From: Candidatus Sulfobium sp.
GTDB taxonomy: Bacteria > Nitrospirota > Thermodesulfovibrionia > Thermodesulfovibrionales > UBA6898
Assembly: GCA_037380845.1 (NCBI GenBank)
Contig: JARRRI010000051.1
Span: forward strand, 1 to 30,116
Direction of reading: 5' to 3'
Length of the DNA stretch: 30,116 nt
Position 1 is the stretch's first letter; every line of letters begins with the position of its first letter. Made by a program: the position numbers and the translations under genes. The notes under the pieces were generated by a model. The model worked only from the letters and a program-made list of their open reading frames with translations. It did not search any database and had not been told where the DNA came from. Shown piece by piece: positions 59 to 28,684 of this stretch.

Positions 59-1288
59 ATGAAGAAGTATGACACGCCGTTGCTTGACGAGTTGGAAAAA
101 GGGCCGTGGCCGAGCTTTGTCACAGAGATCAAAAAGGCCGCGAAAAAGAGCCCTATGGCCAACGACGAGCTGGGACAGCTCGAGTATTCCTTTAAGACAA
201 AACGTGGCTATTGGAAGCATGGGGGTATCGTAGGAGTTCTCGGATACGGCGGTGGAGTTATCGGGAGATACTCCGATCTGCCCGAGCAGTTTCCGGAGGT
301 TGCCCATTTCCATACGGTAAGGCTGAACCAGCCGAGCGGTTTCTTTTACACGACTGATGCGCTCCGCATGATCTGCGACATCTGGGACAAGTATGGAAGC
401 GGGATTACCAACATGCACGGTTCAACAGGCGATATCGTTCTTCTGGGGACGACAACCGATCATCTCGAGACCCTTTTCGCCGAATACTCTTCGCGCGGCT
501 GGGACCTCGGCGGCTCAGGATCCGACCTCAGGACCCCGAGTTGCTGCGTAGGACCAGGCCGCTGCGAGTGGACGAATTACGACACTCTGGATGTCATCAA
601 CAACCTTACCCACGAGTTCCAGGATGAGCTCCACAGGCCTATGTTTGCGTACAAGTTCAAGATCAAGGCCGCCGGTTGTGCATGTGACTGCGTAGCGGCG
701 CTTGCCCGGTCCGACTTCTCCATTATCGGCACCTGGAAGGGTGACATCCTCATCGACCAGGCCGAGGTGGCAAACTATGCCAAAAACGGTATGGACATAA
801 AGGCAAATATCACGGATATGTGTCCGACCAGCTGCATGAGCTATGACGGGAAGGAACTCAAGATAGACAATTCCAACTGCAACAGGTGCATGCACTGCAT
901 ATCCAAGATGACCAAGGCCCTGAGGCCGAGCGGCGAGAGAGGAGCTACCATCTGTATGGGAAGTAAGGCCCCGATCGTTGTCGGCTCTCTGCTTTCATGG
1001 GTTATCGTGCCGTTTATCAAGATCGAACCGCCTTACACTGAACTGAAGGACCTTATCCGGAAGATCTGGGACTGGTGGGACGACAATGCGAAGCCGAGGG
1101 AAAGAGTCGGAGAGGTTATCGAGATGAAAGGCATGAGGTCGTTCCTCGAGGCGATCGGCGTCGAGCCGCAGCCGCAGCAGATCAGAGAGCCCAGAAAAGA
1201 CCCGTTCATGTTCTACACCGAAGAGGACATAGCCGGATTCAAGGCCAAGGAAGCGGATGAGAAAAAGACCGGCGTCTACAAATTCTAA
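59..1288 (+). CDS. dsrA: Dissimilatory sulfite reductase alpha subunit
   Basis: [17 protein letters not shown]-terminus, [20 protein letters not shown], siroheme-[4Fe-4S] motifs CVGPGRC and GCACDC, ferredoxin motif CNRCMHC; GGAGG RBS. Confidence 0.99.
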
Positions 1289-1324
1289 ATAAATATTATA
1301 TATCTTTCAAGGAGGAGATAGAAG

Positions 1325-2398
1325 ATGGCTTTACCAGAGAGAAAAACAGACATAGGTCCGCCAGATTTTCATCAGTTCATGCCGCCCGTTGTTCAGAAAA
1401 ATTACGGCAAGTGGAAGTATCATGAAGTACTTTCGCACAGCACCATGGTTCATGTGGGCGAAAGCGGCGACAAGCTTTGGACCGTCAGGGTGGCATCGCC
1501 GAGGATCATGGCTACCGACACGATCCGCGAGATATGTGACGTCGCGGAGAAATACTGTGACGGGCATCTTCGCTTCACCACCAGGAACAACGTCGAGTTC
1601 CTTATATCCGATGAGAGCAAGTTAGAGCCGTGCAAGAAAGAACTGGCCGACCGCGGATTTAAAATGGGCGGTATTGGATACGGAATCACAAACGTCGTTC
1701 ATACCCAGGGCTGGGTCCACTGCCACAGTGCGGCCACCGACGCGTCTGGTCTTGTCAAGGCCATGATGGACGAACTCTTTGAATACTTCGAATCCAAGAG
1801 CCTTCCGAATAAAGTCAGGCTTGCGGTTGCCTGTTGCGTGAACATGTGCGGCGCGGTGCATTGCTCCGACATCGCAGTCGTGGCTATCCACACCAAGGTT
1901 CCTGTCATAGATCATGATAAATTCAAGAACATGTGCGAACTGCCGACGGTTATCGGGGCTTGTCCTACACGCGCGATAAGTCCTGATCCGGCCAAGAAGA
2001 GCATCAAGATCAATGCCGACAAGTGCATGTACTGCGGCAACTGTTTTACCGTCTGCCCGCCTATTGACATCAAGGATCCGGAACGCGACGGCGTAGCAAT
2101 CGTGGTAGGTGGAAAGATAAACAGCCTCAGGTCCAACCCCAAGTTCTCGAAACTTGTTATACCTTACATCTCAAATGAGCCGCCGAGATGGCCCAAAGTC
2201 GTTGCGGCGATAAAGCACATCGTTGAGGTCTACGCGGCGAATGCACGGAAGTATGAAAGAATTGGCGAGTGGATCGAAAGGATCGGCTGGGAGCAGTTCT
2301 TCAAGCTCACGGGGATCGATTTCACTTACCAGTGCATCGACGACTTTACCTTTATGAGAGACACCTTGAGGACCGCTTCGACATTCAAGTGGTCGTAA
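1325..2398 (+). CDS. dsrB: Dissimilatory sulfite reductase beta subunit
   Basis: TDIGPP, RFTTRNNVEF, HTQGWVHCH, CCVNMCGAVHCSD, CMYCGNCFTVC, ERIGEWIERIGWE; follows dsrA; GGAGGAG RBS. Confidence 0.99.
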   Translation: MALPERKTDIGPPDFHQFMPPVVQKNYGKWKYHEVLSHSTMVHVGESGDKLWTVRVASPRIMATDTIREICDVAEKYCDGHLRFTTRNNVEFLISDESKLEPCKKELADRGFKMGGIGYGITNVVHTQGWVHCHSAATDASGLVKAMMDELFEYFESKSLPNKVRLAVACCVNMCGAVHCSDIAVVAIHTKVPVIDHDKFKNMCELPTVIGACPTRAISPDPAKKSIKINADKCMYCGNCFTVCPPIDIKDPERDGVAIVVGGKINSLRSNPKFSKLVIPYISNEPPRWPKVVAAIKHIVEVYAANARKYERIGEWIERIGWEQFFKLTGIDFTYQCIDDFTFMRDTLRTASTFKWS

Positions 2399-2405
2399 GA
2401 ATGAC

Positions 2406-2442
2406 TAGGAAGACGGCAGTTGCAATAACTGCTGTCTTCCTA
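2406..2442 (+). terminator. 16-bp stem-loop after dsrB (mRNA stabiliser or partial terminator)
   Basis: TAGGAAGACGGCAGTT-gcaat-AACTGCTGTCTTCCTA, one G-U pair, no U tract. Confidence 0.6.
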
Positions 2443-2491
2443 TAAACTGGTGAGTGGAAATATGTTAATCCAATAGCGGGGGTAAAGTACC

Positions 2492-2740
2492 ATGGAAACA
2501 AGTGAACTGCAGGACAAGATTTTCGCCTTCGTAGAAGCAGCAAAAGGTAAGAAGAAGCTAAAAGAGAAAGACATTATCAAGGGCGTGTCGGCGGCCGAGA
2601 ATTTGCCGGCCGATGAAGTGAAGAAGGCCATGAGGGCCATGATTGACGTGGGAAGGCTTATGTACTCCTATGGCGGCGGTGCAAGCTCTGTCGAAATTCC
2701 CAGCGAAGAATACCTGAGAGAAAAAGGCCTTATAAAATAA
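2492..2740 (+). CDS. dsrD: DsrD, small winged-helix activator of DsrAB
   Basis: 82 aa, Lys-rich (KGKKKLKEKD, EVKKAMRAMIDVGRLMYSYGG), immediately after dsrB. Confidence 0.92.
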   Translation: METSELQDKIFAFVEAAKGKKKLKEKDIIKGVSAAENLPADEVKKAMRAMIDVGRLMYSYGGGASSVEIPSEEYLREKGLIK

Positions 2741-2765
2741 GAGTCGACTTTTATCCGTATCTTGG

Positions 2766-2789
2766 ACGGAGAGGGTTATCCCTCTCCGT
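2766..2789 (+). terminator. Stem-loop after dsrD
   Basis: ACGGAGAGGG-ttat-CCCTCTCCGT perfect 10-bp stem; weak U tract. Confidence 0.6.
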
Positions 2790-2885
2790 GCCTTGTTGAA
2801 TCTGAATCCGGTCCGGCAATTAAACCTTCCTTCACCTTGGTCCTTCCCGGCGCATCGGCTCATAAACGTCGTTACGTGCAGGTGA

Positions 2886-2974
2886 TGTCATTCCCGGAGT
2901 AGTTAAGTAAACAACTGGATTACTACTCGAAGCGGTCGCGCCGACAAAATCGTAGCGACCTGCTGGGAATGGCA
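2886..2974 (+). ncRNA. Candidate three-way-junction structured RNA upstream of dsrN
   Basis: P1 TGTCATTCCCG(2886-2896)/TGGGAATGGCA(2964-2974), P2 GAGTAGT/ACTACTC, P3 GGTCGC/GCGACC; folded by eye. Confidence 0.35.
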
Positions 2975-3152
2975 ATGTAGAATTCCAAAACATACAAAAG
3001 CCGTGTTGTAAATACTCCACTGGAGAAGACGGAAGACCCGTTGGTTCCAATTCTATTCCGGACTATACAAACAGCGTAATGTTGATAATATCCTGTAAGT
3101 CGGTCAGAATAATATCTTGCAGAAATTGCGGTGTCTTTGAGGGAGAATTCTT

Positions 3153-4565
3153 ATGAAAACTTCTTATCCAAGGCTGGTAATAGCCGGCTTGAGGGGCGGG
3201 TCAGGCAAAACGACTGTTTCGCTTGGGCTGACAGCAGCCTGGCGAAAACAAGGCCTGAAGGTTGCGGTGTACAAGAAGGGACCGGACTATATAGATGCCG
3301 GCTGGCTTTCGGCGGCTGCGGGCCTGCCATGCTATAATCTGGACCCTTTCCTGATCGGAAGGGAGAAGTTGATCACTTCCTTCAGGGATCATTTCCGGGA
3401 GGCCGATTGCGCCGTCATAGAGGGAAACCGTGGACTTTACGACGGAATGGACCCGAAAGGCACTTACAGCACGGCTGAGCTTGCTAAGAGCCTCCGGTCT
3501 CCCGTACTCCTGGTAATCGACTGTACGAAGTCCACCAGGACTCTGGCGGCCATGGTCCTTGGTGCGAAGAAATTCGACCGGAGGGTCAGGGTGAGCGGAG
3601 TCGTTTTGAACCGGATAGCGGGCGTAAGGCATGAAAGGGTGGTACGGAGGTCGATAGAGGAATACTGCGGAGTGCCTGTATTCGGGGCCATTCCGAAACT
3701 GAGGACGGATTTTTTGTCCGAGAGACATATGGGGCTGACGCCTTTTCAGGAGCATCCGGAGGTGGAAAAAGCGATTGCCGTCTCGGCGGATACTGCTTTC
3801 AGGTACCTGGATCTGACAGGAATATGGAAATCGGCAAAGACCGCTGTTGGTTTGATCGGAGGCCGTATGACGGGGCGGGATACTAAACCGCACTTCCCTG
3901 ACAGCCCGTCTTTGCCCGATGTGACAGTCGGTATTATAAGGGATTCGGCATTTCAGTTCTATTATCCCGAAAATTTCGAGGAGCTTGAAAAAAGGGGTGC
4001 CAGGCTGCTCGAAATAAGCGCCCTGGCGGAGCGGAAACTGCCCGCCATCGACGCCCTTTACATCGGGGGCGGGTTCCCGGAGACAAATGTGGTGGCACTT
4101 GCACGCAATACCGCTTTCAGAAGGGCGGTGAAAGAGGCGGTAGAGAAAGGGCTGCCCGTGTACGCGGAGTGTGGCGGCTTAATGTATCTCGGGAGCTCCC
4201 TCCGGGTTGACAACAAGTCTTATCCGATGACGGGAATCTTTCCGGTAGCGTTCGGCCTCGAAAAAAGGCCGCAGGCGCACGGCTATACGGTTGTCGAAAT
4301 AAGCAGGCGAAACCCGTTCTATGAGCGGGGCATTGTCCTCAAGGGACATGAGTTCCATTATTCCGCGGTAATCGATTATCGATATACGAAGGGAGTGACT
4401 TTTTCGTTCAGGATGAAGCGGGGAGAGGGCTTGATAAGGGGCAGGGACGGGATATGTTATAAAAATGTCCTTGCCACTTACACCCATCTGCATGCCTATG
4501 GAGCACCGCAATGGGCCGATGGTCTTGTTCAGGCGGCAAGACGTTACAGGGAGGAAAAGCCGTGA
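3153..4565 (+). CDS. dsrN: DsrN, siroheme amidase (cobyrinate a,c-diamide synthase family)
   Basis: P-loop GGSGKTT, KKGPDYID, IEGNRGLYDG, glutamine amidotransferase YAECGG and TYTHLH; located in the dsr cluster. Confidence 0.93.
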   Translation: MKTSYPRLVIAGLRGGSGKTTVSLGLTAAWRKQGLKVAVYKKGPDYIDAGWLSAAAGLPCYNLDPFLIGREKLITSFRDHFREADCAVIEGNRGLYDGMDPKGTYSTAELAKSLRSPVLLVIDCTKSTRTLAAMVLGAKKFDRRVRVSGVVLNRIAGVRHERVVRRSIEEYCGVPVFGAIPKLRTDFLSERHMGLTPFQEHPEVEKAIAVSADTAFRYLDLTGIWKSAKTAVGLIGGRMTGRDTKPHFPDSPSLPDVTVGIIRDSAFQFYYPENFEELEKRGARLLEISALAERKLPAIDALYIGGGFPETNVVALARNTAFRRAVKEAVEKGLPVYAECGGLMYLGSSLRVDNKSYPMTGIFPVAFGLEKRPQAHGYTVVEISRRNPFYERGIVLKGHEFHYSAVIDYRYTKGVTFSFRMKRGEGLIRGRDGICYKNVLATYTHLHAYGAPQWADGLVQAARRYREEKP

Positions 4566-4566
4566 A

Positions 4567-5232
4567 ATGCTGAAAAGGGAAGAGGTCGTAAGGGCTCTCG
4601 ATAAAAAGGATTACGCGCCTTTGTATGAAGCGGCAAAGGACGGACGCGGCGTCCTGCGCGTCTTGATCTCCCTGACGTACGATAAGCAGTCCGTCATCAG
4701 TTGGAGGGCTGTGGAGGCCCTAGGACTCCTGGCGGGCGAAATGGCCGGCAGAGACCCCGAGGCGGTGCGAAACCTGGCACAGCGGCTCCTCTGGATGATG
4801 CGGGATGAATCGGGCAACAATCCGTGGGGCGTCCCGGAAGTTTTGGGCGAGATAGTGAGGAACAGCTCCAGCCTGCTTTCCGATTTGCCGCCCATAATCG
4901 CGTCCTTTCATGACGAGGAGATGCTGCGACCGGGCGTGCTGAGAGCACTCGAAAGGATAGCCGGCGTCAGACCGGACCTGGTAATGACGTCGATGCCGCT
5001 GGTTGAAATGTATCTGAAAGACGGCAATCCGGACGTGCGCGCTTATGCCGCATTGCTGGGGGGGCGTTTACGTCTTGCGGAACTTCTTCCCGCCGTCGAA
5101 GAGCTGGTAAAGGACGACTCTTCCGTCACCATGTACGAGGGAGGAGACCTGGTGGCGACGACCGTAGGAGAGAAGGCCTCGGAAGTTGTTATACTATTGC
5201 GAAACAAAAAAAGGAAAGAGGACAATGTGTGA
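4567..5232 (+). CDS. HEAT-repeat (PBS-lyase-like, DVU0298-like) protein
   Basis: WRAVEALG, RLLWMMRDESGNNPWGVPEVLGEI, DGNPDVRAYAA helical repeats; start moved to ATG 4567 behind GGAGGA, 1 nt after the dsrN stop. Confidence 0.75.
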   Translation: MLKREEVVRALDKKDYAPLYEAAKDGRGVLRVLISLTYDKQSVISWRAVEALGLLAGEMAGRDPEAVRNLAQRLLWMMRDESGNNPWGVPEVLGEIVRNSSSLLSDLPPIIASFHDEEMLRPGVLRALERIAGVRPDLVMTSMPLVEMYLKDGNPDVRAYAALLGGRLRLAELLPAVEELVKDDSSVTMYEGGDLVATTVGEKASEVVILLRNKKRKEDNV

Positions 5233-5612
5233 TGCTTGAATGCCCTTTTTGCAGAAGGCCGATCGAAGAGCCGCAGGAGATTACTTCCCGCTTTGGTTCT
5301 ACTTTCAGCGGCGGGAAGTGCGACTGCGGCGCGGTATACGTCTATGACGAGTCGGGTCATCACGTGGGCGATGCCTATGTCGACGCACTGGCATTTGCCT
5401 TTAATGATGACCTGGACAAGGCATGGAGCTATACCCCCGGTGAAGATTATGAAATCATAGAGCTGAGTTACGACAAGAGAAGGAACAGGTTTGTTCGGGA
5501 AATCAGCGGTGGACGCGGCCGGACCATCCCCGTTTTCCTGTTTCTGCTGAATAGGAAAGAATCTCACGGAGACAAAGAGGTGTCTGACGTACAGGGAAAA
5601 GAAAATGAATAA
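5232..5612 (+). CDS. Conserved hypothetical protein with CPFC and CDCG motifs (putative metal ribbon)
   Basis: ATG overlaps the upstream TGA (TGATG coupling); CPFC...GKCDCGAVYVYDESGHHVG...AW. Confidence 0.75.
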   Translation: MLECPFCRRPIEEPQEITSRFGSTFSGGKCDCGAVYVYDESGHHVGDAYVDALAFAFNDDLDKAWSYTPGEDYEIIELSYDKRRNRFVREISGGRGRTIPVFLFLLNRKESHGDKEVSDVQGKENE

Positions 5613-5751
5613 AGGATGGTGCCTTTTATAGTTCAAAATAATTCTGGCAGAGGAAAAGCTGACCAAAAACACAGGAAATCTCGGCATTGTATTGTTGGGA
5701 GTCAATCCCTGCAAGAATCAAAAAACCATTTAGAAGAAAGGGGGAAGGAAA

Positions 5752-6087
5752 ATGCCTACAATGGAGTTTCAGGGAAAACAGATTGAAGTCGATGACGACG
5801 GCTATCTCTTGAATCTTGACGACTGGACGAAGGAGCTCGCTGCAGAGCTTGCGAAACAGGACGGACTGGAGCTTACCGACGCTCACTGGGAAGTTATCAA
5901 TTTTCTGAGGGACTATTATCAGCAGTATCAAATCGCCCCGATGATTAAGATCCTGGTAAAGGAAATCGGTAAGGCCATGGGGCCTGAAAAGGGCAATACG
6001 AAATATCTTTATGAGCTTTATCCGGGCGGACCTGCGAAGCAGGCGTGCAGATATGCCGGTCTTCCGAAACCGACAGGTTGCGTTTAG
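5752..6087 (+). CDS. dsrC: DsrC sulfur-carrier protein
   Basis: VDDDGYL, HWEVINFLRDYY, and C-terminal CRYAGLPKPTGCV with both conserved Cys (CX10C). Confidence 0.98.
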   Translation: MPTMEFQGKQIEVDDDGYLLNLDDWTKELAAELAKQDGLELTDAHWEVINFLRDYYQQYQIAPMIKILVKEIGKAMGPEKGNTKYLYELYPGGPAKQACRYAGLPKPTGCV

Positions 6088-6120
6088 TCTTTAAGACGTT
6101 CAGTATCCAGTTTCAACTTC

Positions 6121-6148
6121 CGGCACCCCTGCAACGGGGTGCCGTCTT
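6121..6148 (+). terminator. Stem-loop after dsrC
   Basis: CGGCACCCC-tgcaac-GGGGTGCCG followed by TCTT. Confidence 0.6.
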
Positions 6149-6318
6149 CAAACTGCAGGCCTTTATGGGCAAGGGGAGAAACAACAATTTTCTACTGTGG
6201 GAAATAAGACGATGAAGCAGAGAACAGAACGCTCTTTGGCGGAGAGTCGCCGCTTGCAGCGAATCTGGTTGCAGGGGCGGGCGTTTCCCGATTGCTCAGG
6301 GAGCGGTAAACACCGGAC

Positions 6319-6867
6319 ATGAAGCTTCACGAGCTCCTCTCGCAACAAAAGGCGGCAATAATCAAAAAATGGTTTGACTCGGTACTCAGGACCTATCCGG
6401 AAGACTCTTCACGATTCATGGGAAAGAAGGGCGACCCCTTTACCAACCCGGTGGGTCATACCATACGCCGGGGTCTGGAAGGGGTATTCGACGAACTCCT
6501 CGGTGAACTTGACTACGATAAGGTGTCCCCTTTCCTCGATGAGATTATCCGGGTCAGGGCGGTTCAGGATTTTACCCCTTCCCAGGCGGTTTCTTTCATC
6601 TTTTCATTGAAAAGCCTGATAAGAGAGGAGTTGGCGCGGAATCGGGCCGAAGTTTCCCTGGAAGAGCTGCTGGCATTTGAATCAAAAATCGACAGGCTGG
6701 CCCTCTTTTCCTTCGACATATTTGTCATCTGCAGGGAGAAGCTTTATGAGATAAAAGCAAATGAATTAAAAAATATGACCTTCCGGCTTCTGCAGAGGGT
6801 CAACGCAATGGATGAGGACAAGGGCGGGAATCCCGAATCTTCATCGGGCAACAATGATAACGCGTAA
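6319..6867 (+). CDS. dsrT: DsrT (RsbRD N-terminal-like domain protein)
   Basis: DPFTNPVGHTI, IIRVRAVQDFTPSQAVSFIFSLK, CREKLYEI; directly upstream of dsrM. Confidence 0.92.
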   Translation: MKLHELLSQQKAAIIKKWFDSVLRTYPEDSSRFMGKKGDPFTNPVGHTIRRGLEGVFDELLGELDYDKVSPFLDEIIRVRAVQDFTPSQAVSFIFSLKSLIREELARNRAEVSLEELLAFESKIDRLALFSFDIFVICREKLYEIKANELKNMTFRLLQRVNAMDEDKGGNPESSSGNNDNA

Positions 6868-6885
6868 AACAAAAGAGGTAACTAA

Positions 6886-7887
6886 ATGAAAACCGTGCTT
6901 CCGTTAATTGCAGTGATCATACTGGTTTTGCTTGCCTTTGTGGGAGTGAAGGTGGCTAACTTGCAGTACCTCTTCGGGGTTGTCGTCCCCTATGCGGCCC
7001 TTGCCGTTTTCGTTCTGGGGTTTATCTACAGGATAGTAAAATGGGGGAAGTCGGCCGTTCCGTTTTCAATCCCGACCACTGCGGGTCAGCAGAAATCGCT
7101 TCCCTGGATCAAGCAGAGCAAGCTGGATAATCCATCCACTACTCTGGGCGTCATAGGCAGGATGGCACTGGAGGTGCTGACCTTCCGCTCGCTGTTCAGA
7201 AATACCAGGACGGAGTTAAGGGATGGACCAACAGTCTCCTACGGATCCGAAAAGTTTCTTTGGATGGCCGGACTCGCTTTCCATTGGTCGTTTCTCATCA
7301 TCGTGATACGGCATCTGAGGTTTTTTACCCAGAATGTTCCGGGCGTGGTCAGCGCGGTCGCGAGTCTGGACAGCTTCCTTCAGATGGGGGTTCCGATACT
7401 CTACATAACGGACGTTGTAATTTTACTGGCGATCACCTACCTCTTCCTCAGAAGGGTCTCAATGCCGCTTATCAAATACATCTCTCTCCAGGCCGACTAT
7501 TTCCCTCTGTTTCTGATATTCGGTATCGTGGCTTCGGGAATGATCATGAGGTATTTCACGAAAGTGTATGTAGTAGGGGTTAAGGAATTGGCCATGGGGC
7601 TGGTCAGCTTCAGCCCGGTGAACATGGAGACCATGCAGGGTATCGGCGTGATTTTCTATATCCATCTGTTCCTGATCTGCGTGCTGTTTGCTTACTTCCC
7701 GTTCAGTAAATTGATGCATATGGGGGGCGTCTTCCTCAGTCCGACGCGAAACATGCCGAACGACAGCCGGATGATCAGGCACATCAATCCGTGGAACCAC
7801 CCCGTGCATGTACACACCTATGAAGAATATGAAGACGATTTCAGGGAAAAAATGAAAAAGGCTGGTTTACCAGTCGAAAAGGAGTAG
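6886..7887 (+). CDS. dsrM: DsrM, membrane cytochrome b (NarI-like)
   Basis: Multiple TM helices, FHW...RHLR, IHLFL...YFPFSKLMH heme b ligands, HINPWN tail. Confidence 0.97.
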   Translation: MKTVLPLIAVIILVLLAFVGVKVANLQYLFGVVVPYAALAVFVLGFIYRIVKWGKSAVPFSIPTTAGQQKSLPWIKQSKLDNPSTTLGVIGRMALEVLTFRSLFRNTRTELRDGPTVSYGSEKFLWMAGLAFHWSFLIIVIRHLRFFTQNVPGVVSAVASLDSFLQMGVPILYITDVVILLAITYLFLRRVSMPLIKYISLQADYFPLFLIFGIVASGMIMRYFTKVYVVGVKELAMGLVSFSPVNMETMQGIGVIFYIHLFLICVLFAYFPFSKLMHMGGVFLSPTRNMPNDSRMIRHINPWNHPVHVHTYEEYEDDFREKMKKAGLPVEKE

Positions 7888-7889
7888 CC

Positions 7890-9500
7890 ATGGCAAAAGC
7901 ACCATCACCAGATCAGCTCTCAAAAATAAAATACAGCCCGCCGAGGAAGGATTGGATGGACACGCTGCCGGTGGAATTCAAGCCCGGCATGTTCTGCTGG
8001 GGGGCGAAGGGGAAAAACCTGGAGACTGTGGAATTCCCCAATGCCAGGGACTGGTCACCCGTAGACGAGGACTGGAAGCTTCCGGAGAACTGGAAAGAGA
8101 TCGTGCTGGAGGGCATAAAAGACCGCCTGAGCAAATACCGCTCTTTCCATGTGTTCATGGACATATGTGTAAGGTGCGGCGCATGCGCCGACAAATGTCA
8201 TTTCTTTATCGGCGGCGGCGACCCCAAGAACATGCCTGTCCTCAGGGCTGAACTGTTGAGGTCGATATACAGAAAATATTTCACGCCTTCCGGCAAGATA
8301 TTCGGAAAGAGCGCAGGGGCCAGGGAACTCACCCTCGATGTCCTTAAGGAGATATGGTATTACTACTACCAGTGCACCGAGTGCCGCCGCTGCTCCCTGT
8401 TCTGTCCCTACGGTATCGACCAGGCTGAGATTACCATGATAGGGCGTGAACTCCTGAATCTGCTGGGTCTGAACACCGACTGGATTTCAGGCCCTGTCGC
8501 AAACTGTTACATGAAGGGCAACCACCTCGGTCTTGAGCCCCATGCCATCGTGAGCAATATCGAGTATATGCTCGACGATATCGAGACCATAACGGGGATA
8601 AAGGTCGAGCCCACCTTCAACAGAAAAGGCGCTGAAATACTTTTCGTGACTCCCTCGGGAGACCTCTTCGCCGATCCCGGAACCTTCACCTGCATGGGTT
8701 ACCTGATGCTCTTCCACGAACTGGGACTTGATTACACCTGGAGCACGTATGCCTCGGAGGGCGGAAATTTCGGCTTCTTCACCTCGAACGACATGGCAAA
8801 GAGGCTGAATTCAAAGATATACGCCGAGGCCAGGAGGCTGGGCGTCAAATGGATCCTGGGAGGGGAATGCGGCCACATGTGGAGGGTCGTTCACCAGTAT
8901 CAGGATACCTGGAACGGTCCGGCGGACTTCCTCGAGGTCCCTAAATCACCTATAACCGGTACCGTATTCGACAATGCCCGGTCTACGAAGATGACGCACG
9001 TAGCGGAGTTCACCGCCGACCTGATCAAAAACGGCAAGCTGAAGCTCGATCCCTCCAGAAACGATAATCTGGTCGTCACCTACCATGACTCATGCAATAC
9101 CGCAAGAGGTATGGGCATTATGGAGGAGCCACGCTACATTATCAAGAATGTATGCAACAACTTCCATGAGATGCCTGAAAACACCATCAGGGAGCAGACC
9201 TTCTGCTGCGGGAGCGGCACCGGGCTCAATGCCGGCGAAAATACCGAACTGAGAATGAGAGGCGGGTTTGCGAGGGCCAACGCGGTCAAGCATGTCAAGG
9301 AAAAATACGGGGTGAACATGCTGGCCAATATCTGCGCTATCGACAGGGCCACTCTCACGGCGTCGATGGACTACTGGGTCCCCGGGGTGAGGGTCACCGG
9401 TGTACACGAAATGGTGGCAAACGCATTGATAATGAAGGGCGAAAAGGAGAGAGAAACCGATCTCCGCGGAGATCCCCTTCCGGGAAAGGAGGAGAAATAG
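7890..9500 (+). CDS. dsrK: DsrK, HdrD-like Fe-S subunit
   Basis: CVRCGACADKC, CTECRRCSLFCP, GECGH, YHDSC, FCCGSG CCG domain. Confidence 0.98.
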   Translation: MAKAPSPDQLSKIKYSPPRKDWMDTLPVEFKPGMFCWGAKGKNLETVEFPNARDWSPVDEDWKLPENWKEIVLEGIKDRLSKYRSFHVFMDICVRCGACADKCHFFIGGGDPKNMPVLRAELLRSIYRKYFTPSGKIFGKSAGARELTLDVLKEIWYYYYQCTECRRCSLFCPYGIDQAEITMIGRELLNLLGLNTDWISGPVANCYMKGNHLGLEPHAIVSNIEYMLDDIETITGIKVEPTFNRKGAEILFVTPSGDLFADPGTFTCMGYLMLFHELGLDYTWSTYASEGGNFGFFTSNDMAKRLNSKIYAEARRLGVKWILGGECGHMWRVVHQYQDTWNGPADFLEVPKSPITGTVFDNARSTKMTHVAEFTADLIKNGKLKLDPSRNDNLVVTYHDSCNTARGMGIMEEPRYIIKNVCNNFHEMPENTIREQTFCCGSGTGLNAGENTELRMRGGFARANAVKHVKEKYGVNMLANICAIDRATLTASMDYWVPGVRVTGVHEMVANALIMKGEKERETDLRGDPLPGKEEK

Positions 9501-9899
9501 ATGTATAACGGCGGCAAGATAATGCTGGGACTGCTTATATTTCTGGCTGTTGTGACATTTCCCTTCTGGTATAACCTCGGGACGGCCGATACCATACCGA
9601 AGCCGAAAATCGAAACCCCGTTTATCAAGCAGCACGGGATAAAAAAATGTGTAGAGTCCAAGGATTACATGAGGCGCGAACACATGCAGCTGCTTGATAC
9701 GTGGAGAAACGACGCTGTCCGGAAGGGTGAAAGGATCTACGTGAACTCGGAAGGAAAAAGATACCTTATCGACCTGCAGAATACCTGTCTTAAGTGCCAT
9801 TCCAACAAGAAAGATTTCTGCGACAAGTGCCATAATTACATGGCCGTGAAACCCTATTGCTGGGATTGTCATTTCGCACCGAAGGAGAACAAGTCATGA
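9501..9899 (+). CDS. dsrJ: DsrJ, triheme cytochrome c
   Basis: N-terminal TM, CVES..YMRREHM, three CxxCH motifs (CLKCH, CDKCH, CWDCH). Confidence 0.96.
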   Translation: MYNGGKIMLGLLIFLAVVTFPFWYNLGTADTIPKPKIETPFIKQHGIKKCVESKDYMRREHMQLLDTWRNDAVRKGERIYVNSEGKRYLIDLQNTCLKCHSNKKDFCDKCHNYMAVKPYCWDCHFAPKENKS

Positions 9900-10777
9900 G
9901 TATAAACAGGAGACAATTCATAAAGCTGGCCGGACTCTCCGCCGTTCTGAGCGTCGGGGGGATTACGGCTATAGACAAGGTGAAGGCCAACGCCCAGGAG
10001 CTTCCCTCGGGTGCCCGTGCGACGGCTTCTGCAGCGGGGCAGATCTTTGGTCAATCAAAGCCTCCCCTTACGGCAAAGAGGTGGGGGATGGTTGTCGATC
10101 TTTCGAAGTTCCAGACTCCGGAAGACTACCAGAAGTGCATAGATGCCTGCAATCGGATCCACAATATCCCGGATTTCGGTGAGAAAAAGGATGAAGTCAA
10201 GTGGATATGGACCGATACCTTCGAACATACTTTCCCGGATAGTAACCCGAGGGACCGCAAAGAGGTGAAGGATGGCGACGAACTCGGTCTGTTCATCCCG
10301 GAAGAGTTGAAAGAAAAGCGTTTCCTTCTACTCTGCAACCATTGCGACAACCCCCCCTGCACAAGGGTATGTCCGACGAAGGCTACCTGGAAGAGGGAGT
10401 CTGACGGTATCGTTATGATGGACCAGCACAGATGCATCGGCTGCAGGTTCTGCATGGCAGCCTGTCCCTTCGGAGCCAGAAGCTTCAACTGGAGGGACCC
10501 CAGGCCGTTCATCAAGGAGGAAAACCTGAACCCGGAGTATCCCACGAGGGCCATCGGAGTGGTTGAGAAATGTATCTTCTGCGTCGAGCGGCTTGAACAG
10601 GGGCTCAAACCGGCATGCGTCGAGAAGTCCAACGGGGGACTGGTCTTCGGAGATCTTGACGACAAGAATTCAGATGTCAGGAAGCTCCTCCGTACACATT
10701 TCAGCATACGGCGCAAGCCCCAGCTTGGGACCCAGCCCAGTGTGTACTACCTAATAGGAGGTATTAAGAATGTTTGA
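9896..10777 (+). CDS. dsrO: DsrO, periplasmic Fe-S protein
   Basis: Tat signal SINRRQFIK at ATG 9896 (GGAG RBS; overlaps dsrJ stop); CNHCDNPPCTRVCP, CIGCRFCMAACP, KCIFC. Confidence 0.96.
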   Translation: MSINRRQFIKLAGLSAVLSVGGITAIDKVKANAQELPSGARATASAAGQIFGQSKPPLTAKRWGMVVDLSKFQTPEDYQKCIDACNRIHNIPDFGEKKDEVKWIWTDTFEHTFPDSNPRDRKEVKDGDELGLFIPEELKEKRFLLLCNHCDNPPCTRVCPTKATWKRESDGIVMMDQHRCIGCRFCMAACPFGARSFNWRDPRPFIKEENLNPEYPTRAIGVVEKCIFCVERLEQGLKPACVEKSNGGLVFGDLDDKNSDVRKLLRTHFSIRRKPQLGTQPSVYYLIGGIKNV

Positions 10778-11927
10778 AAAAGCGCTGGTCGGAAGTAAGC
10801 GATACTGGACATGGATCGGGATCTTGCTGGTCGTCATCGGAGTGGGCGTTGTGTACTACCTCCGTCAGTTCCACTATGGCCTGGGACTCACCGGCATGAG
10901 CAGGGACGTTTCCTGGGGCTTCTATATCGCCCAGTTCACGTTCCTCGTCGGCGTGGCTGCGTCGGCGGTCATGCTCGTCATACCTTATTACCTGCACCAT
11001 TACAAAACCTTCAGACGGATAGTAATCCTGGGAGAATTCCTGGCGATCGCTTCTGTCATAATGTGCATCCTCTTTATCTTCGTGGATCTCGGACAGCCAA
11101 TGAGGGTGCTGAACGTGGCGTTGCACCCCAGGCCGAATTCGGTCATGTTCTGGGATATGATTGTGCTGATCGGCTATCTCACCCTTAACGTCGTCATCGG
11201 ATGGACGACGCTGGGGGCGGAGCGCAAGGAGGTGCCGCCGCCTGCGTGGGTAAAACCGCTTATTATCCTGTCCGTACCCTGGGCGGTCAGCATCCATACC
11301 GTTACCGCGTTTCTGTATGCCGGTCTTCCCGGGAGACACCTCTGGTTGTCGGCTATTATGGCCGCCCGCTTCCTGGCGGGGGCGTTTGCTGCAGGCCCGG
11401 CGCTCCTCATACTGCTTGCCTTTATCATCAGAAGGGTGAGCACATTTGATGCGGGGAGAGAGGCGATACAGGCTGTGGCAAAGATCGTAGCATATGCCAT
11501 GTCCGTTAACGTTTTCTTCATACTGCTTGAGTTCTTCACCGCCTTTTACAGCGGCGTGCCGGCACATACAGCTTCCATGAGGTACCTCTTCTTCGGTCTT
11601 GACGGCCATTATGAGTTTGTTCCTTTCATGTGGGTTCTGGCGATACTGGCGATTGCGAGCCTTGTCCTGCTGGTAATCCCCAAATTCCGGGAAAACGAGG
11701 CCATCCTGCCGGTGGCCCTCATTGCGGTCTTCATCTCTACCTGGATCGATAAAGGTGTAGGCCTGGTGGTTGGCGGTTTTATCCCCAATCCGTTTGAGAC
11801 CATTACGACCTATTCGCCGACTCTGCCGGAACTTCTCATAACACTGGGAGTCTATGGGGCGGGTGCGCTTACGCTGACCGTTCTTTACAAGATAGCAATC
11901 GGCGTCAAGGAGGAGGTTGCCACTTAG
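10770..11927 (+). CDS. dsrP: DsrP, NrfD/PsrC-family membrane protein
   Basis: TGMSRDVSWGFYIAQFTFLVGVAASA, DLGQP, WAVSIHTVTAFL; polytopic membrane protein. Confidence 0.97.
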   Translation: MFEKALVGSKRYWTWIGILLVVIGVGVVYYLRQFHYGLGLTGMSRDVSWGFYIAQFTFLVGVAASAVMLVIPYYLHHYKTFRRIVILGEFLAIASVIMCILFIFVDLGQPMRVLNVALHPRPNSVMFWDMIVLIGYLTLNVVIGWTTLGAERKEVPPPAWVKPLIILSVPWAVSIHTVTAFLYAGLPGRHLWLSAIMAARFLAGAFAAGPALLILLAFIIRRVSTFDAGREAIQAVAKIVAYAMSVNVFFILLEFFTAFYSGVPAHTASMRYLFFGLDGHYEFVPFMWVLAILAIASLVLLVIPKFRENEAILPVALIAVFISTWIDKGVGLVVGGFIPNPFETITTYSPTLPELLITLGVYGAGALTLTVLYKIAIGVKEEVAT

Positions 11928-17110: not shown

Positions 17111-18002
17111 TTACTTTTCGAGTTTTGAAGTGCTGATTTTAACTATCTCCCGCTTTATCTGGCCGGGCATTCTCATGTTCTTTATAAAGGCCCAGTTGCC
17201 GGCGTCTTCAAAATAGAGCTTCATGCGGTACATCTCGTCGAGTGTGACGACCTTGACCACGCCTCTCCCCTTGTATATGGCTACCTCGATCGGAAAGGCG
17301 GCGGCGTGGTCAATTCCGGGACAACGGTAGTCTTTGGATTCCCTCTTCTCTCCGGCTATGCCGTAAGCCCTGGCTTCTGTGGCGGGGTTGTTGATGCCAT
17401 ACATGACGATATCTTCGGCCGGTTTCAGTGTATAGATGAGCTTCCAGCCCTCCTTGTTAGACATGATACCGTCTTTGACTTTTGCCGCTATGTCCTGAAA
17501 GACGCCCGGGGCATCGTCCTTCTTATACATCACTTCCGGCATATCCGCGAAATCCCCTCCACCCATGCCGCCGACCCTGCCTTCGCTTCTGAGCTCGCCT
17601 ATCTGCCGGTTCACGGCGTCTCCCTGCACGGCCGACGCAAGAATTGTAGACAACTTGTTCATAGTGGTTTCTGACAGCCTTTCTTCCGTCTTGTCGCCGA
17701 GTACGGTTCTGTTTATGGAGGCCGGATTAACGAAAGCTGCATTGAGGCCCTTTTCGTCCTGATAAAGTTCCACCCTGAGAGGTATGGCAAAGACTGCCGT
17801 GGGGCCGTGGGATATAATCTGTTTTGCATATTCCGGAGAGTTTATAACTATGTTGTAAGCCCTGAACCCGCAGTCCTTCGGTACGGAAGCCTCGTACGAT
17901 GCCATTGTCGACGGCCTTTACATATACACCGTATTCCTGGGCATGTACTGCCGGTGACATCACGAAGAATACTGCCAGAACAAACAATAACATCTTTTTC
18001 AT
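17111..18002 (-). pseudogene. Frameshifted exported protein with two DUF302-like domains
   Basis: Signal peptide ORF from 18002 (GAGGAGG RBS) and protein body 17111-17905 are in different frames, joined at GAC-A-ATG near 17906; repeats PLRVELYQD and PIEVAIYK. Confidence 0.65.
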
Positions 18003-24641: not shown

Positions 24642-25229
24642 TTACCTGAAGAGCTTAAGATATTCGCCGTAGCCTTCCTCCTGAAGTTCTTCCTTCGGAA
24701 TGAACCTGAGGGCGGCCGAGTTCATGCAGTACCTTTTTCCCGTTGGCGGCGGACCGTCGCCGAAAACATGGCCGAGATGAGAATCGCCATGCCTGCTCCT
24801 CACCTCGGTCCTCCTCGTGAAAAAGCTCCAATCGTCTTTTTCCACGATATTCCCAGGGTCGATCGGCCGCGTGAAACTCGGCCATCCGGTCCCGGAATCG
24901 TACTTGTCCAGGGAACTGAAAAGCGGTTCTCCCGACACGACGTCCACATAGATCCCTTTCCTCTTATTGTCCCAGTATTCGTTATTGAAGGCCGGTTCGG
25001 TACCGTCCTTCTGCGTGACTTTATACTGAATCGGGGTCAGTCTTTGTCTGAGTTCCTTCTCGGATGGTTTCATGAACGGCCTCCATGTTTTGCCGGTACC
25101 TTGCCGGACATTGGTCGGTGTGACCTTCCCGTCTGTCGGAACCTGTTTCTGTTCCGCGGTGACGAAGGCATACATCGCAAGCAGCAACGCTACGACGATA
25201 ACAGACAACATTTTCATATTTGCGGTCAT
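24642..25229 (-). CDS. msrB: Peptide methionine-(R)-sulfoxide reductase with signal peptide
   Basis: [23 protein letters not shown]...[20 protein letters not shown]; hydrophobic N-terminus. Confidence 0.96.
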
Positions 25230-25285
25230 TCTTTCCTCCCCATATAAAATTCTAACGTGTTCGATGCGGGAAAGTCATGAGGAGA

Positions 25286-25627
25286 TCAATGTCCTCGTTT
25301 TCCCGTCAATGTCTCTCGGTACGTCCCGGCTCTCTTGAGTATTCTCTCCATTTCCTCCACGGAAATTCTCGATCTGTCATAAATGACAGTATTGATTTCC
25401 ATAGAACCCTTCCATCCATTTGTGACATTCGAGATGCCTTTCAGCCCTGCCAGGGCCGCCCTGCCTGCGTCATATCACGAAACTCCGAAGACGGCTGTAG
25501 CCCTGTCACTCCGCGAAAATGTCTTCGCACCTTTTCCAGGAGGTGATAGTAGAAACAGCCCTGCTGCGGTCAGAGACGCGATAAAAGCCGGGATAACCGC
25601 CGATCTTATGAAATATTTACCTCCCAT
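25286..25627 (-). CDS. Candidate exported selenoprotein, mini MsrA-like/HMA-fold (Sec51)
   Basis: Hand translation MGGKYFIRSAVIPAFIASLTAAGLFLLSPPGKGAKTFSRSDRATAVFGVS-U-YDAGRAALAGLKGISNVTNGWKGSMEINTVIYDRSRISVEEMERILKRAGTYRETLTGKRGH; single in-frame TGA at 25475-25477; fills the gap between the kinase gene and msrB. Confidence 0.8.
25443..25474 (-). promoter_or_regulatory. Candidate bacterial SECIS element
   Basis: GC-rich hairpin CAGGG-CGG-CCCUG with loop 16 nt after the UGA (alternative GGCCCU-GGC-AGGGCU); G in the apical loop. Confidence 0.45.
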
Positions 25628-25634
25628 ATTTTTT

Positions 25635-25666
25635 AGTATATGACGGAAATCTCACGATTCTGTCAC
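25635..25666 (-). promoter_or_regulatory. OmpR-type direct-repeat box plus -10 element, upstream of the selenoprotein gene and msrB
   Basis: GTGACA-N5-GTGAGA-N9-TATACT. Confidence 0.65.
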
Positions 25667-25747
25667 GGGACAGCATTCATTCCTGACAGGCGGCAGGATG
25701 TTGGCGAATTTCCGGCGGGCTAAAGCGGCTGATTACGAAGTCGGCGG

Positions 25748-27232
25748 TTAACTGCCGTTTACAGGATGAACGGGCAGTGAAAAGGAGAATGTTGTCCCCA
25801 TGTGCAGTCTGCTTTTTACCTGTATCGAACTGCCATGCAGTTCCAGAATTTGTTTTGCAATGGCCAGTCCGAGACCCGAGTGCCCCGCTTTGTACCGCCT
25901 GCTTTTGTCGAGTTGGTAAAACCGTTCGAATATCCTGGGGATCTCTTCTCCGGGAATCCCAGGCCCCGTGTCGCTTATGTCCACGGTAACAACCTCTTTG
26001 GCAGGGCTGAGCACTATGCTCACCGTTCCTTCCTCAGGAGTGTGACTGAGGGCGTTATCGACCAGGTTTTCGATCACACGCTCGATCAGGCCGATATCGC
26101 CGTCGACCATCGGGACGCCTATACTTATATTGGTGATGACTCTTATTTTCTTGTCTTCGGCCCGCAACCTGAATTTCTGTATCACGTCCTGTACCAGTTC
26201 TCCCAGGTTGAACGGTTCCGGGCGGACCCGCGTATCCTGTGCCTCCAGCTTGGCAAGGTCGAACAGGTCGGAGACCAGCTTCCCGAGTCGCCTGCAATGA
26301 CTCAGGGCAGTATCAAGATATTCCTGACGTTCTTCGGGCGGGATGGCTTCGTTCTTCATAATCAGGGTTTCCAGGTATCCCTGGAGGGTGGCAAGTGGGG
26401 TGCGCAGGTCGTGGGAGACATTTGCTACCAGTTCCCTTCTCATCGAATCGGACTTCTTCATCGATTTTACCTGTGTTTCGATTCTTTGGGCCATTTCCCT
26501 GAACGTGGACACCAGCATGTCGATTTCGTCGCCTCGAGCTTCTTGTGATGATGGCAGGTCGAGGTCTGAAAGAGGAATCCCTTCCCTGTACGCTCCCATA
26601 GCCGTGGCGAGCCGTCGGAGCCTGCGAGTGAGACAGCCGAAAACGATCAATCCCGCCAGTACAGCCACCGTGAGGCTGGCGAGAATTCCCCAGATGCCGA
26701 GCCTCAGGATGTAGCTGCCCTGGAGTTTCTGCATAAGCGTGTCGTAGACCTCCCCCCCGAGGATGACATAGAGATAACCTTCCAGCTTGCCTTTTGCAGG
26801 GATGCGGGCTGCGGAAAAGATCTTTCTGCTTCCGGGGTTTCTAGGGTTGACCCCGAGGATGGGCAGGCTTTCATTTCCGGAGAGGAAACGTCTTATCGGT
26901 TCCACGTCGACATTTCTTGCCTTTATCTTGCCGGGCTCGGCGGAGAAGGCAAGAACAGACCCTTCCGGATCCAGAAGGTAGATCTCAATGCCGGGATTTA
27001 CTACCATGAGCATGTCAAAGACTTCTTCCAGAGATTTGCGGTCGATACCGTTTTTTCCGACCAGTATCTTCTGTTCCACAATGTGTCTTGCGATGTCACT
27101 GTTAAGTTTCTGGGTCACCTCCTCCTGGTACATGCCGCTCATGTAGAGGCCGATCGCAACAAAGGCCGAGCCGGCAAGAACAAAAAGGGCCAGGAGGACA
27201 GCCGCCAGCCTTGAATAAAGGGAGGAAAACAC
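25748..27232 (-). CDS. Sensor histidine kinase (2 TM, HAMP, HisKA, HATPase)
   Basis: ANVSHDLRTPL H-box, NLVDNA, DTGPGI, FERFYQ, GLGLAI. Confidence 0.96.
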   Translation of the reverse strand: MFSSLYSRLAAVLLALFVLAGSAFVAIGLYMSGMYQEEVTQKLNSDIARHIVEQKILVGKNGIDRKSLEEVFDMLMVVNPGIEIYLLDPEGSVLAFSAEPGKIKARNVDVEPIRRFLSGNESLPILGVNPRNPGSRKIFSAARIPAKGKLEGYLYVILGGEVYDTLMQKLQGSYILRLGIWGILASLTVAVLAGLIVFGCLTRRLRRLATAMGAYREGIPLSDLDLPSSQEARGDEIDMLVSTFREMAQRIETQVKSMKKSDSMRRELVANVSHDLRTPLATLQGYLETLIMKNEAIPPEERQEYLDTALSHCRRLGKLVSDLFDLAKLEAQDTRVRPEPFNLGELVQDVIQKFRLRAEDKKIRVITNISIGVPMVDGDIGLIERVIENLVDNALSHTPEEGTVSIVLSPAKEVVTVDISDTGPGIPGEEIPRIFERFYQLDKSRRYKAGHSGLGLAIAKQILELHGSSIQVKSRLHMGTTFSFSLPVHPVNGS

Positions 27233-27235
27233 TGT

Positions 27236-27952
27236 TCAGTTCCCTGCCTTCGCCGTATCCGCGAATTTGTAACCTACACCCCACACCGTAAGAATATAAT
27301 CCGGGCGCGCTGGGTTATCCTCGATCTTGGCACGCAGCCTGTTGATATGGGAATTGACCGTATGCTCGTAACCGTCATGCGAATACCCCCAGACGGCATC
27401 GAGCAGTTGAGTGCGTGTGAATACCCTGCCGCGGTTGCGGGCGAAATAAAGAAGGAGATCGAACTCTTTCGCTGTAAGTTCTATCGTCTTCCCCCGGCGA
27501 AGGACGTTTCTCCTCGTCGCGTCTATCTCAAGGTCGCCAGCTTTGATAACAGGCTCTTCGAAAGTTTGTTGCTCTTGGGCAAGCAGATCTACACGTCGCA
27601 GCAATGCCTTTACGCGTGCGATTAATTCCACAATGCTGAACGGTTTCGTCACATAATCGTCCGCCCCCATCTCCAGACCGAGCACCCTGTCAATTTCCGA
27701 GGACTTGGAGGTAAGCATCAGTATGGGGACATAGGACTGCCTTGCACGGAGCCGCCTGCAGATCTCGACTCCGTCAAGTCCGGGCAGCATGAGATCGAGG
27801 ATTATAAGGTCAAAGCGGTCCGCTTCGGCCATGGCCAGACCGGAGACGCCGTCGGCGGCAACCTCCACCTCATAGGAGAGGTCGCCGAGATGTACCCGGA
27901 GTAAACGGGCGAGGTCCCTGTTGTCTTCTATGATCAGAATGTGGCTTTTCAT
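27236..27952 (-). CDS. OmpR/PhoB-family response regulator
   Basis: IIEDN, LDLMLPG, GADDYVTKPF, winged helix LTAKEFDLL...TVWGVGYKF. Confidence 0.97.
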   Translation of the reverse strand: MKSHILIIEDNRDLARLLRVHLGDLSYEVEVAADGVSGLAMAEADRFDLIILDLMLPGLDGVEICRRLRARQSYVPILMLTSKSSEIDRVLGLEMGADDYVTKPFSIVELIARVKALLRRVDLLAQEQQTFEEPVIKAGDLEIDATRRNVLRRGKTIELTAKEFDLLLYFARNRGRVFTRTQLLDAVWGYSHDGYEHTVNSHINRLRAKIEDNPARPDYILTVWGVGYKFADTAKAGN

Positions 27953-27981
27953 GCCGCCTCGGGTTCTGTTCCCTTATCTCT

Positions 27982-28013
27982 AGTCTATCGCAGGGTTGTA
28001 ACAAAAGTGTCAC
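27982..28013 (-). promoter_or_regulatory. OmpR-type direct-repeat box plus -10 element, upstream of the response regulator
   Basis: GTGACA-N5-GTTACA-N9-TAGACT. Confidence 0.65.
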
Positions 28014-28081: not shown

Positions 28082-28684
28082 TTATACCTGACTGGAAGAC
28101 CCGAGGCTTCTTCCGTCCCGGAGAAATCTGAGAAACAGGTAGCCCGTGGCAGAACTCACGAACGCCAGAATCCCCCAGAATACTATCTGTGAAGTGTTAA
28201 TGCCTATATCTCTTAACCCATGCCCGCCTGCGTATCCTATTGATACAAGTGCGGCAATGGTGAAAGTGACAGCAAAGGCATCAGCCAGGACGAATTTAAG
28301 GCGGTTCATCTTCATGATGCCCGACACGAGGAAGATCTGGGCTCTCAAGCCGATAAATTGTCTGCCGAACAGAACAAAGAAGACCCCCTTCCTCTCGAAC
28401 GTCTTTTCGAGCGAGTCCAGCTTGTCCCGGGATAAAAATCTCCTGAACCATCTGTGGCAGACGACCATGCGACCATATTTTCGTCCGAAAGAATAGATAA
28501 TGAAGTCCGCTATGAGCACCCCCACATAAACAACCAGCAAGGCTGGAATGACTTTAACGATGTCCTGACGAATCAGAAATCCGCAAAGAATCAATGTCGC
28601 GTCTTCAGGGAACAGTGGAACACCGAGCCCTCCGAGAATGAGTGGGGCAAAAAGACCAAGGTATGGGAAATTTCCGAGAAACAT
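28082..28684 (-). CDS. DedA-family membrane protein
   Basis: GLGVPLFPEDATLILCG, ADFIIYSFGRKYG, FGRQFIGLR. Confidence 0.9.
   Translation of the reverse strand: MFLGNFPYLGLFAPLILGGLGVPLFPEDATLILCGFLIRQDIVKVIPALLVVYVGVLIADFIIYSFGRKYGRMVVCHRWFRRFLSRDKLDSLEKTFERKGVFFVLFGRQFIGLRAQIFLVSGIMKMNRLKFVLADAFAVTFTIAALVSIGYAGGHGLRDIGINTSQIVFWGILAFVSSATGYLFLRFLRDGRSLGSSSQV

Follow-up and report, generated by a model that had tools for sequence, protein, structure and literature searches.

We describe here a two-component system encoded on the minus strand of a 30,116-nucleotide contig of Candidatus Sulfobium sp. (JARRRI010000051.1, which is contig C51 of genome G000); in the following, this whole stretch is called the window. 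The system comprises an OrhR-like response regulator of the OmpR family and an OrhK-like membrane sensor kinase, and it is followed by the gene of a predicted exported selenoprotein and by the methionine sulfoxide reductase (Msr) gene msrB. It is probably an OrhK/OrhR-type system that responds to oxidized envelope proteins, with three sets of targets: the operon of the system itself, that of the selenoprotein and msrB, and genes located elsewhere. The regulator likely binds GTGAyn direct repeats laid over the -35 region and, upon oxidation of envelope proteins, would likely switch on these genes, the unlinked ones including that of an exported MsrA. Binding of the two boxes described below by the adjoining regulator is very probable. 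Directly observed were the boxes with their spacing and conservation, the way in which they co-segregate with the regulator family, a sensor homologous to that of OrhK, many Msr genes around the kinases, and the family of selenocysteine (Sec) and Cys homologues.

Both boxes lie on the minus strand. Box 1 (27982..28013), upstream of the regulator gene, is a predicted autoregulatory site with its -10 element and reads, from 28013 to 27982, GTGACA-CTTTT-GTTACA-ACCCTGCGA-TAGACT. Box 2 (25635..25666), from which the Sec gene and msrB are predicted to be transcribed, reads, from 25666 to 25635, GTGACA-GAATC-GTGAGA-TTTCCGTCA-TATACT. These assignments come from the sequence and from the matrix presented below. 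An earlier, sequence-only reading of this DNA had pointed out the same two boxes and had called their architecture identical. Direct inspection of the sequence bears out the boxes and their shared half-sites and spacing, but both lack in-phase upstream halves and keep only the proximal pair of the four half-sites that are usual among orthologues. Box 2 is identical in the congener G001, and a full box 5' of the regulator, the counterpart of box 1, was also found in the closest relatives (L019, L020, L021, L024, L025 and L028). A strict box pattern had two matches in the genome of 3,178,821 bases, both in the window, and a looser one had four. Because the strict pattern was derived from the two window sites, this proves little alone, and the box was therefore followed through orthologous loci. 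Altogether, the two boxes are confirmed as real and beyond chance.

With the N-terminal 211 residues of the kinase as query, 401 genomes of the phylum yielded 61 matches, spread over 57 genomes; going by how close homologues are labelled, the phylum was taken as Nitrospirota. All counts of orthologous kinases refer to 40 of these 61 matched places. After dropping eight of them as redundant or short, the 200 nucleotides downstream of each of the 32 de-duplicated kinases were submitted to an unseeded dyad count, in which pairs of 4-mers with a spacer were tallied. The top dyad was GTGA-N7-GTGA, present in 24 of the 32 loci (20 shuffles gave maxima of 4-5), and in 21 of these 24 it was separated from TAnnnT by a gap of 9 nucleotides. 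Motif discovery behind orthologous kinases hence recovered the box de novo. The usual array of the family is GTGAyn-N5-(T/G)TTAyn-N5-GTGAyn-N5-GTGAyn-N9-TAnnnT, with GTGA at -22 of this four-half-site array in 21 of 28 matched loci. A seeded box pattern, derived from the window together with its nearest relatives, was present 3' of the kinase, the place equivalent to box 2, in 25 of 40 loci, compared to a mean of 0.03 and a maximum of 1 in 200 shuffles. Upstream of the regulator, the full box was found in 13 of 53 loci (shuffle mean 0.03, maximum 2); the window and two nearly identical loci of congeners are included in this count. Since the regulator is preceded in many loci by no more than a half-site with an extended -10, autoregulation, as claimed by the sequence-only reading, looks lineage-limited: the box before the regulator in the window is consistent with it, but the wider family mostly lacks the full site.

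A natural control was provided by 14 loci that were recovered with the Sec protein as query. In most of them, msrAB and the Sec gene have another response regulator and a shorter kinase as neighbours, and an OrhK-like sensor was found in none of the 14. The nine regulators found there carry a different recognition helix (V-DVHIGKLRQK), and a CTTTAC-type 11-base-pair (bp) repeat stands in place of the box in 11 of the 14 loci, by a pattern written after the sequences had been seen. In the 13 control loci scanned, matrix scores did not exceed 11.9. The recognition helix of the window regulator is GYEHTVNSHINRLRAKIE, identical in 31 of the 39 orthologues where it was read. Since a different regulator goes with a different repeat at the same genes, the box tracks the regulator family and not the target genes. 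Two further settings have the box: deltaproteobacterial metagenome contigs, where it lies 3' of the kinase, and a Bacteroidota plasmid, with three copies around the kinase/regulator pair. Thus the association of a conserved box of 11-bp period with this regulator family, proposed from the window only, is borne out by the dyad counts in orthologues and by co-segregation. Alternatively, the boxes could be read by some other OmpR-family regulator, e.g. a PhoB-like one, with the adjoining regulator not the main activator. The genome holds six OmpR-type DNA-binding domains, and the pstS promoter shows GTAACA repeats of equal period with a 9-bp spacer. However, the box follows the kinase/regulator family over Nitrospirota, the deltaproteobacterial contigs and the Bacteroidota plasmid, and it is replaced where the same target genes adjoin a different regulator, and we regard this alternative as highly improbable.

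As a separate observation, in the deltaproteobacterial loci L002:1710-4943, L004:1704-4893, L009:1759-4950, L013:1829-4989 and related ones, msrAB and this Sec gene are preceded by another OmpR pair, not related to that of the window. Its kinase has about 360 residues with a short Met/His-rich periplasmic loop, and three or four CTTTAC repeats of 11-bp period are present. This pair would appear to be a convergent regulator that controls the msrAB-Sec operon in parallel.

To describe the predicted regulon, a matrix was built from 33 sites, none of them from genome G000 or its congener G001, and three shuffled genomes served as reference (best scores 19.0, 19.7 and 17.6). Both window boxes are within the top seven sites of the genome, all of which exceed the best shuffle score of 19.7: C47:30968 (30.9), box 1 (23.3, rank 2), C67:7640 (22.7), C49:3128 (22.6), C4:113808 (21.3), C59:3353 (20.5) and box 2 (20.5). 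The next-best site in the window scored 0.6. The top site on C47 precedes the gene of a Cys-rich periplasmic protein, whose orthologue adjoins the kinase, with a box, in G009. The site on C49 precedes a lactonase-like beta-propeller gene, and this propeller family adjoins the kinase in 11 of 40 loci. The site on C59 precedes a Met-rich mini open reading frame (ORF) and then an MsrA gene whose product has the signal-like N-terminus of an exported protein. All four half-sites are present at C49 and C59. The predicted regulon therefore reaches beyond the window locus, and boxed targets across loci include exported propeller, Spondin_N, DM13, YHS and DUF7482 proteins.

Several candidates were not retained. 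C67:7640 lies inside a coding sequence, and C8:3688 (17.7) scores within the shuffle range. C4:113808, before pstS, was set aside as more likely a Pho box, and the M50 protease gene downstream was left out of the regulon for its own strong sigma-70-like promoter (11/12). Considered by itself, the region C4:113775-113840 (L127) shows GTAACA repeats before pstS with the same period and 9-bp spacer, making it a candidate Pho box of this lineage and a possible cross-talk site. Within the C59 stretch 2323-3364 (L126), which holds the box, the mini-ORF and the exported MsrA, the mini-ORF appears decayed, and a second exported MsrA on C17, 85% identical to that on C59, has no high-scoring box.

The response regulator (27236..27952, minus strand; 238 residues; PF00072 and PF00486) is 52% identical to OrhR of uropathogenic E. 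coli CFT073 and is OrhR's best among the four genome matches listed; both have the recognition helix GYEHTVNxHINRLRAKIE in common. The CFT073 genes (c3564/c3565) were recognised by His278, Asp55 and gene order. In the case of the kinase (25748..27232, minus strand; 494 residues; periplasmic PDC/Cache-type domain, then HAMP, HisKA and HATPase), identity to OrhK (WP_000995840) is 33% over 488 residues, the sensor included. A sensor-only profile found OrhK with an E value of 1.1e-43, and the OrhK sensor as query matched only the window kinase in the genome (35%). The kinase was modelled with a predicted local distance difference test score (pLDDT) of 86.5 and its sensor fold matches PDC/Cache-like domains; a PDB sequence search with the sensor gave nothing useful. 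The family is large, with 1,426 clusters at 50% identity.

The sequence-only reading had proposed a Met pair in the sensor, within the stretch VFDMLMVVNP, as the oxidation sensor. This stretch is indeed present, with M74 (27013-27011) and M76 (27007-27005, minus strand), and among the 120 closest proteins both residues seem conserved (117 and 120, respectively). However, the pair is lost among 150 diverse relatives, of which 144 have M76 but only 30 have M74, and 77 have H73. Sequence conservation thus leaves M76, which aligns with M79 of OrhK. Position 73 is Asp in the window kinase and Glu in OrhK, and the family consensus is F-H-x-L-M. In HprS, the sensor residues M72 and M153 have been implicated, according to the available part of 10.1101/2021.09.09.459708, and by analogy M76 is a fair candidate for an oxidation sensor. 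Tentatively, reversible oxidation of M76 might be the switch, reset by exported MsrA/MsrB as negative feedback.

Gene neighbourhoods provide an indication of the signal. Msr-type genes lie within about 5 kb of 27 of the 40 orthologous kinases, and Msr-type or chlorite dismutase genes near 31 of 40; together with msrB in the window, this upholds the proposed link to methionine repair. Beyond this set, Burkholderia multivorans has msrB-dipZ-msrA divergent from a homologous kinase/regulator pair, and Rahnella has MsrPQ-like and MXKDX genes in the same arrangement. Chlorite dismutase follows the box in four of 40 loci (L111 and L121 by PF06778, L112 and L114 by similarity). At these loci (L111:4820-5611, L121:2606-3400, L112 and L114) it is the first gene past the kinase, with a full four-half-site box, and the four genomes (family f29) are likely relatives of nitrite oxidisers. 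The available part of PMC9751292 notes that Msr systems, and also subfamilies of OmpR regulators and kinases, occur close to chlorite dismutase genes in general. The neighbourhoods would favour an oxidant signal, with reactive chlorine plausible in some lineages. We consider an oxidant, such as peroxide or reactive chlorine, or else the damage resulting from it, to be the likely signal. A different explanation is that the kinase senses general envelope damage, i.e. misfolded or oxidized periplasmic proteins in a Cpx-like manner, and not an oxidant directly, with M76 in a structural role. The diversity of the exported targets listed above would fit this, as would the many non-Met residues that are conserved as strongly as M76. 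The theme of Msr-type or chlorite dismutase genes is, however, far narrower than expected of a general stress regulon, which renders this explanation improbable.

The Sec gene (25286..25627, minus strand) encodes a predicted exported selenoprotein of 113 residues with a hydrophobic N-terminus and one Sec (U51, in FGVSUYD), as derived from homologues, model and fold searches. Its in-frame TGA (25475..25477) is read as Sec. Among 41 distinct homologue sequences in the fetched loci, this position is TGA in 32 and Cys in nine, and a single U or C is present in all 16 homologues aligned. A stem-loop resembling a Sec insertion sequence (SECIS), CGGCCCT-GGC-AGGGCTG (25442..25458, minus strand), lies 16 nucleotides past the UGA and is kept in 16 of 16 folded sequences; its stem sits within conserved codons, and the 78-nucleotide region shows no excess of stability over shuffles (z -0.34). 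From the Sec machinery, tRNA-Sec and SelA were looked for and found, on C31 and C22. The sequence-only reading had argued from the shared box that this ORF is a real gene, and the TGA and Cys homologues, the conserved stem-loop, tRNA-Sec and SelA support the same conclusion, with Sec insertion predicted from sequence. The start codon is either ATG at 25627, 7 nucleotides past the -10, or ATA at 25609, where G001 has ATG. If ATG 25627, which is in frame and coincides with the predicted transcription start, is used, the mRNA would be leaderless, and a switch to leaderless translation is possible. The Sec gene was found near 13 of 40 orthologous kinases (with one query) and in eight of 151 genomes of the class.

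In the model, the mature part (residues 41-110) reaches a pLDDT of about 90 or more and adopts a ferredoxin-like fold as in HMA domains and the MsrA core. The best fold match is the HMA domain 6a71_A (Z 9.2, root mean square deviation 2.0, 66 residues aligned), and MsrA 4lwj matches with Z 7.9 (2.0, 71 aligned). Sequence profiles are weak and evenly split between HMA and MsrA, with MerP leading at E 0.065, and the Sec residue aligns both with the Cys of the MsrA motif FAGGCFW and with C17 of MerP. Scans against Pfam and NCBIfam gave no family above cut-off. A CxxC/UxxU metal-binding pair is absent from the protein, which has no PF00403 match and does not reach the NF041115 cut-off; likewise, neither the GCFW motif nor a full MsrA catalytic domain was found (no PF01625 match). 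A protein-database search returned 29 candidates, none of which scored, probably because gene callers stop at the TGA. An atlas search gave only scores below 0.9. A 2026 review (PMC13188914) tabulates 119 families, and in the examined part of that table the motif had no match. A complete Msr enzyme appears unlikely from the sequence. The protein might quite possibly, at somewhat under an even chance, be a periplasmic thiol/selenol partner that recycles a one-Cys MsrB or scavenges oxidant, and metal binding is a doubtful alternative role.

These fold searches also bear on a third explanation, that the kinase senses copper or a soft metal via His/Met ligands, the regulon combining metal handling with the repair of damage that metals catalyse and the Sec protein being an HMA-type periplasmic chaperone. 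HMA domains lead the fold search and MerP the profile search, H73 occurs in 77 of the 150 relatives, boxes in G009 precede Cys-rich and YtkA proteins, and the top genome site on C47 is placed before a Cys-rich periplasmic protein gene with copC/copD further downstream. On the other hand, that gene lies about 460 bp from copC, with a T-run hairpin in between, CopC/CopD were found near none of the 40 orthologous kinases, and position 73 is occupied by Asp or Glu in the window kinase and OrhK. In addition, the Sec protein has a single U and no CxxC pair, and the characterised homologue OrhK/OrhR responds to H2O2 according to the available part of PMC8550376. We therefore find a soft-metal signal improbable.

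MsrB (24642..25229, minus strand; TIGR00357, PF01641) has an N-terminal signal-like hydrophobic stretch and scores 205 bits compared to the TIGR00357 cut-off of 113. Its catalytic C168 is its sole Cys, with neither Zn ligands nor a resolving Cys. Upstream of the regulator, a DedA/VTT membrane protein (28082..28684, minus strand; PF09335) has no upstream matrix site and counts here as a neighbour rather than as a predicted regulon member. The host had been called an anaerobe, and dsrA (above cut-off) in the window agrees with this, but COX1-family genes are present elsewhere in the genome, and the host may not be a strict anaerobe. Elsewhere in the window, a long plus-strand cluster (59-11927) opens with dsrA and looks like dsrAB with associated genes, dsrA being the gene scanned. 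At 17111-18002 (minus strand), the signal peptide and body of a DUF302-like exported protein are in different frames, indicating a frameshift or sequencing error near 17930.

Some results weigh against an OrhK/OrhR-type oxidant system with the regulon described here. The matrix is not fully specific, with high scores for pstS (21.3, similar architecture) and for an intragenic site (22.7), and box 2 (20.5) barely exceeds the best shuffle (19.7). Of five loci in which the Sec gene lies apart from the kinase, two have a clear box, one a partial box and two no box. Most MsrB domains in the loci studied have one Cys only, also where the Sec gene is missing. In the fold search with the Sec protein, metal-binding HMA domains score higher (Z 9.2) than MsrA (7.9). 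M76 may be structural, judging from its near-invariant neighbours N79, P80, E83 and Y85. The 26-leaf group uniting OrhR with these regulators in a FastTree tree of 38 sequences has a support of 0.39, and such a clade is not resolved by the tree. Finally, the best matrix score in the CFT073 intergenic region is 9.3, at a site overlapping the TGTGA of the published inverted repeat, and the Orh-type promoters of p666, Rahnella and Burkholderia score below 0.

As a whole, the analysis supplies a predicted binding motif and a regulon for a widespread kinase family of which one characterised member was found, and it singles out one candidate sensing residue, M76. It also points to a selenoprotein family with Cys homologues that falls outside the cut-offs of all curated models. 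To our knowledge, the control of chlorite dismutase in Nitrospirota not known to respire chlorate is a standing puzzle, which becomes open to direct test because the same box precedes that gene. More speculatively, and with considerable doubt, OrhKR could be one tip of a large, hardly studied cross-phylum family of single-Met oxidant sensors. The targets of its GTGA array would be MsrA/MsrB of the periplasm, in nitrifier-like Nitrospirota chlorite dismutase, and a family of exported mini-selenoproteins that is not yet listed. Derived by reduction of an MsrA core, these would recycle one-Cys Msr in the periplasm of sulfate reducers and so replace a thioredoxin. In full-text literature, mostly outside subscription journals and supplements, neither the motif, the regulon nor the selenoprotein was found described.

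Regarding known selenoproteins, the Sec protein weakly matches NF041383, the VPGUxxT thioredoxin-like selenoprotein type 2, at model positions 142-210, with 36 bits compared to a cut-off of 275, and has the motif FGVSUY and no VPGU. Its homologues reach 19-29 bits against NF041115, the UxxU metal-binding selenoprotein (cut-off 95), and lack UxxU. Unlike both, it is a stand-alone exported domain of about 70 residues. The core fold is common to MsrA (PF01625), including the Sec-containing MsrA of Clostridium oremlandii. The Sec protein lacks three elements that matter for a complete MsrA enzyme, namely the NPTYEEV loop, the GCFW Trp and the C-terminal half.

Two-component control of periplasmic methionine repair is not new, with HprSR and OrhKR as earlier examples. 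The sequence-only reading had chosen HprS/HprR (YedVW, HypVW) of E. coli K-12 as comparison, and the likeness extends to an OmpR-type pair over periplasmic methionine repair and to a sensor Met. This choice did not hold, as the window sensor is homologous to OrhK and not alignable with HprS (profile E 0.14). BLASTP aligned HprS over the catalytic kinase core only, at 24%, the best genome match of HprR is another regulator on C17, and membership in HprSR was rejected. An HprS-type sensor domain with M72/M153 was not found in the window kinase; hiuH and msrPQ were not found as neighbours, which are the Sec gene and msrB, and the matrix gives the region between hprR and hiuH a negative score.

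OrhK/OrhR of CFT073 is the closer relative. In the available part of PMC8550376, it is described as activating an MsrPQ-like operon with a Met-rich peptide in a H2O2-dependent manner, with binding in electrophoretic mobility shift assays and an inverted repeat, TCACA-N15-TGTGA, as proposed site. As an observation on its distribution, an OrhKR-like module with MsrPQ-like genes (L077:3071-7053; L128:5219-9190) was found in 354 of 5426 E. coli genomes, with 75 places on plasmids, and also on Klebsiella and Shigella plasmids. Whereas the targets of OrhKR are MsrPQ-like, the window system has MsrB, an unlinked MsrA and the selenoprotein; its genes are in tandem and not divergent, no toxin operon accompanies them, and the family site is a direct-repeat array instead of an inverted repeat. 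The proteobacterial Orh-type promoters have only a GTGA(T/G) core in common with the family site, with an inverted pair in p666, Rahnella and Burkholderia, and the OrhR inverted repeat may represent two back-to-back half-sites that serve divergent promoters. Both systems nevertheless have homologous periplasmic sensors with a common Met and nearly identical recognition helices, OrhK and OrhR have this locus as their best match in the genome, and both systems adjoin methionine-repair genes and feature a Met-rich peptide.

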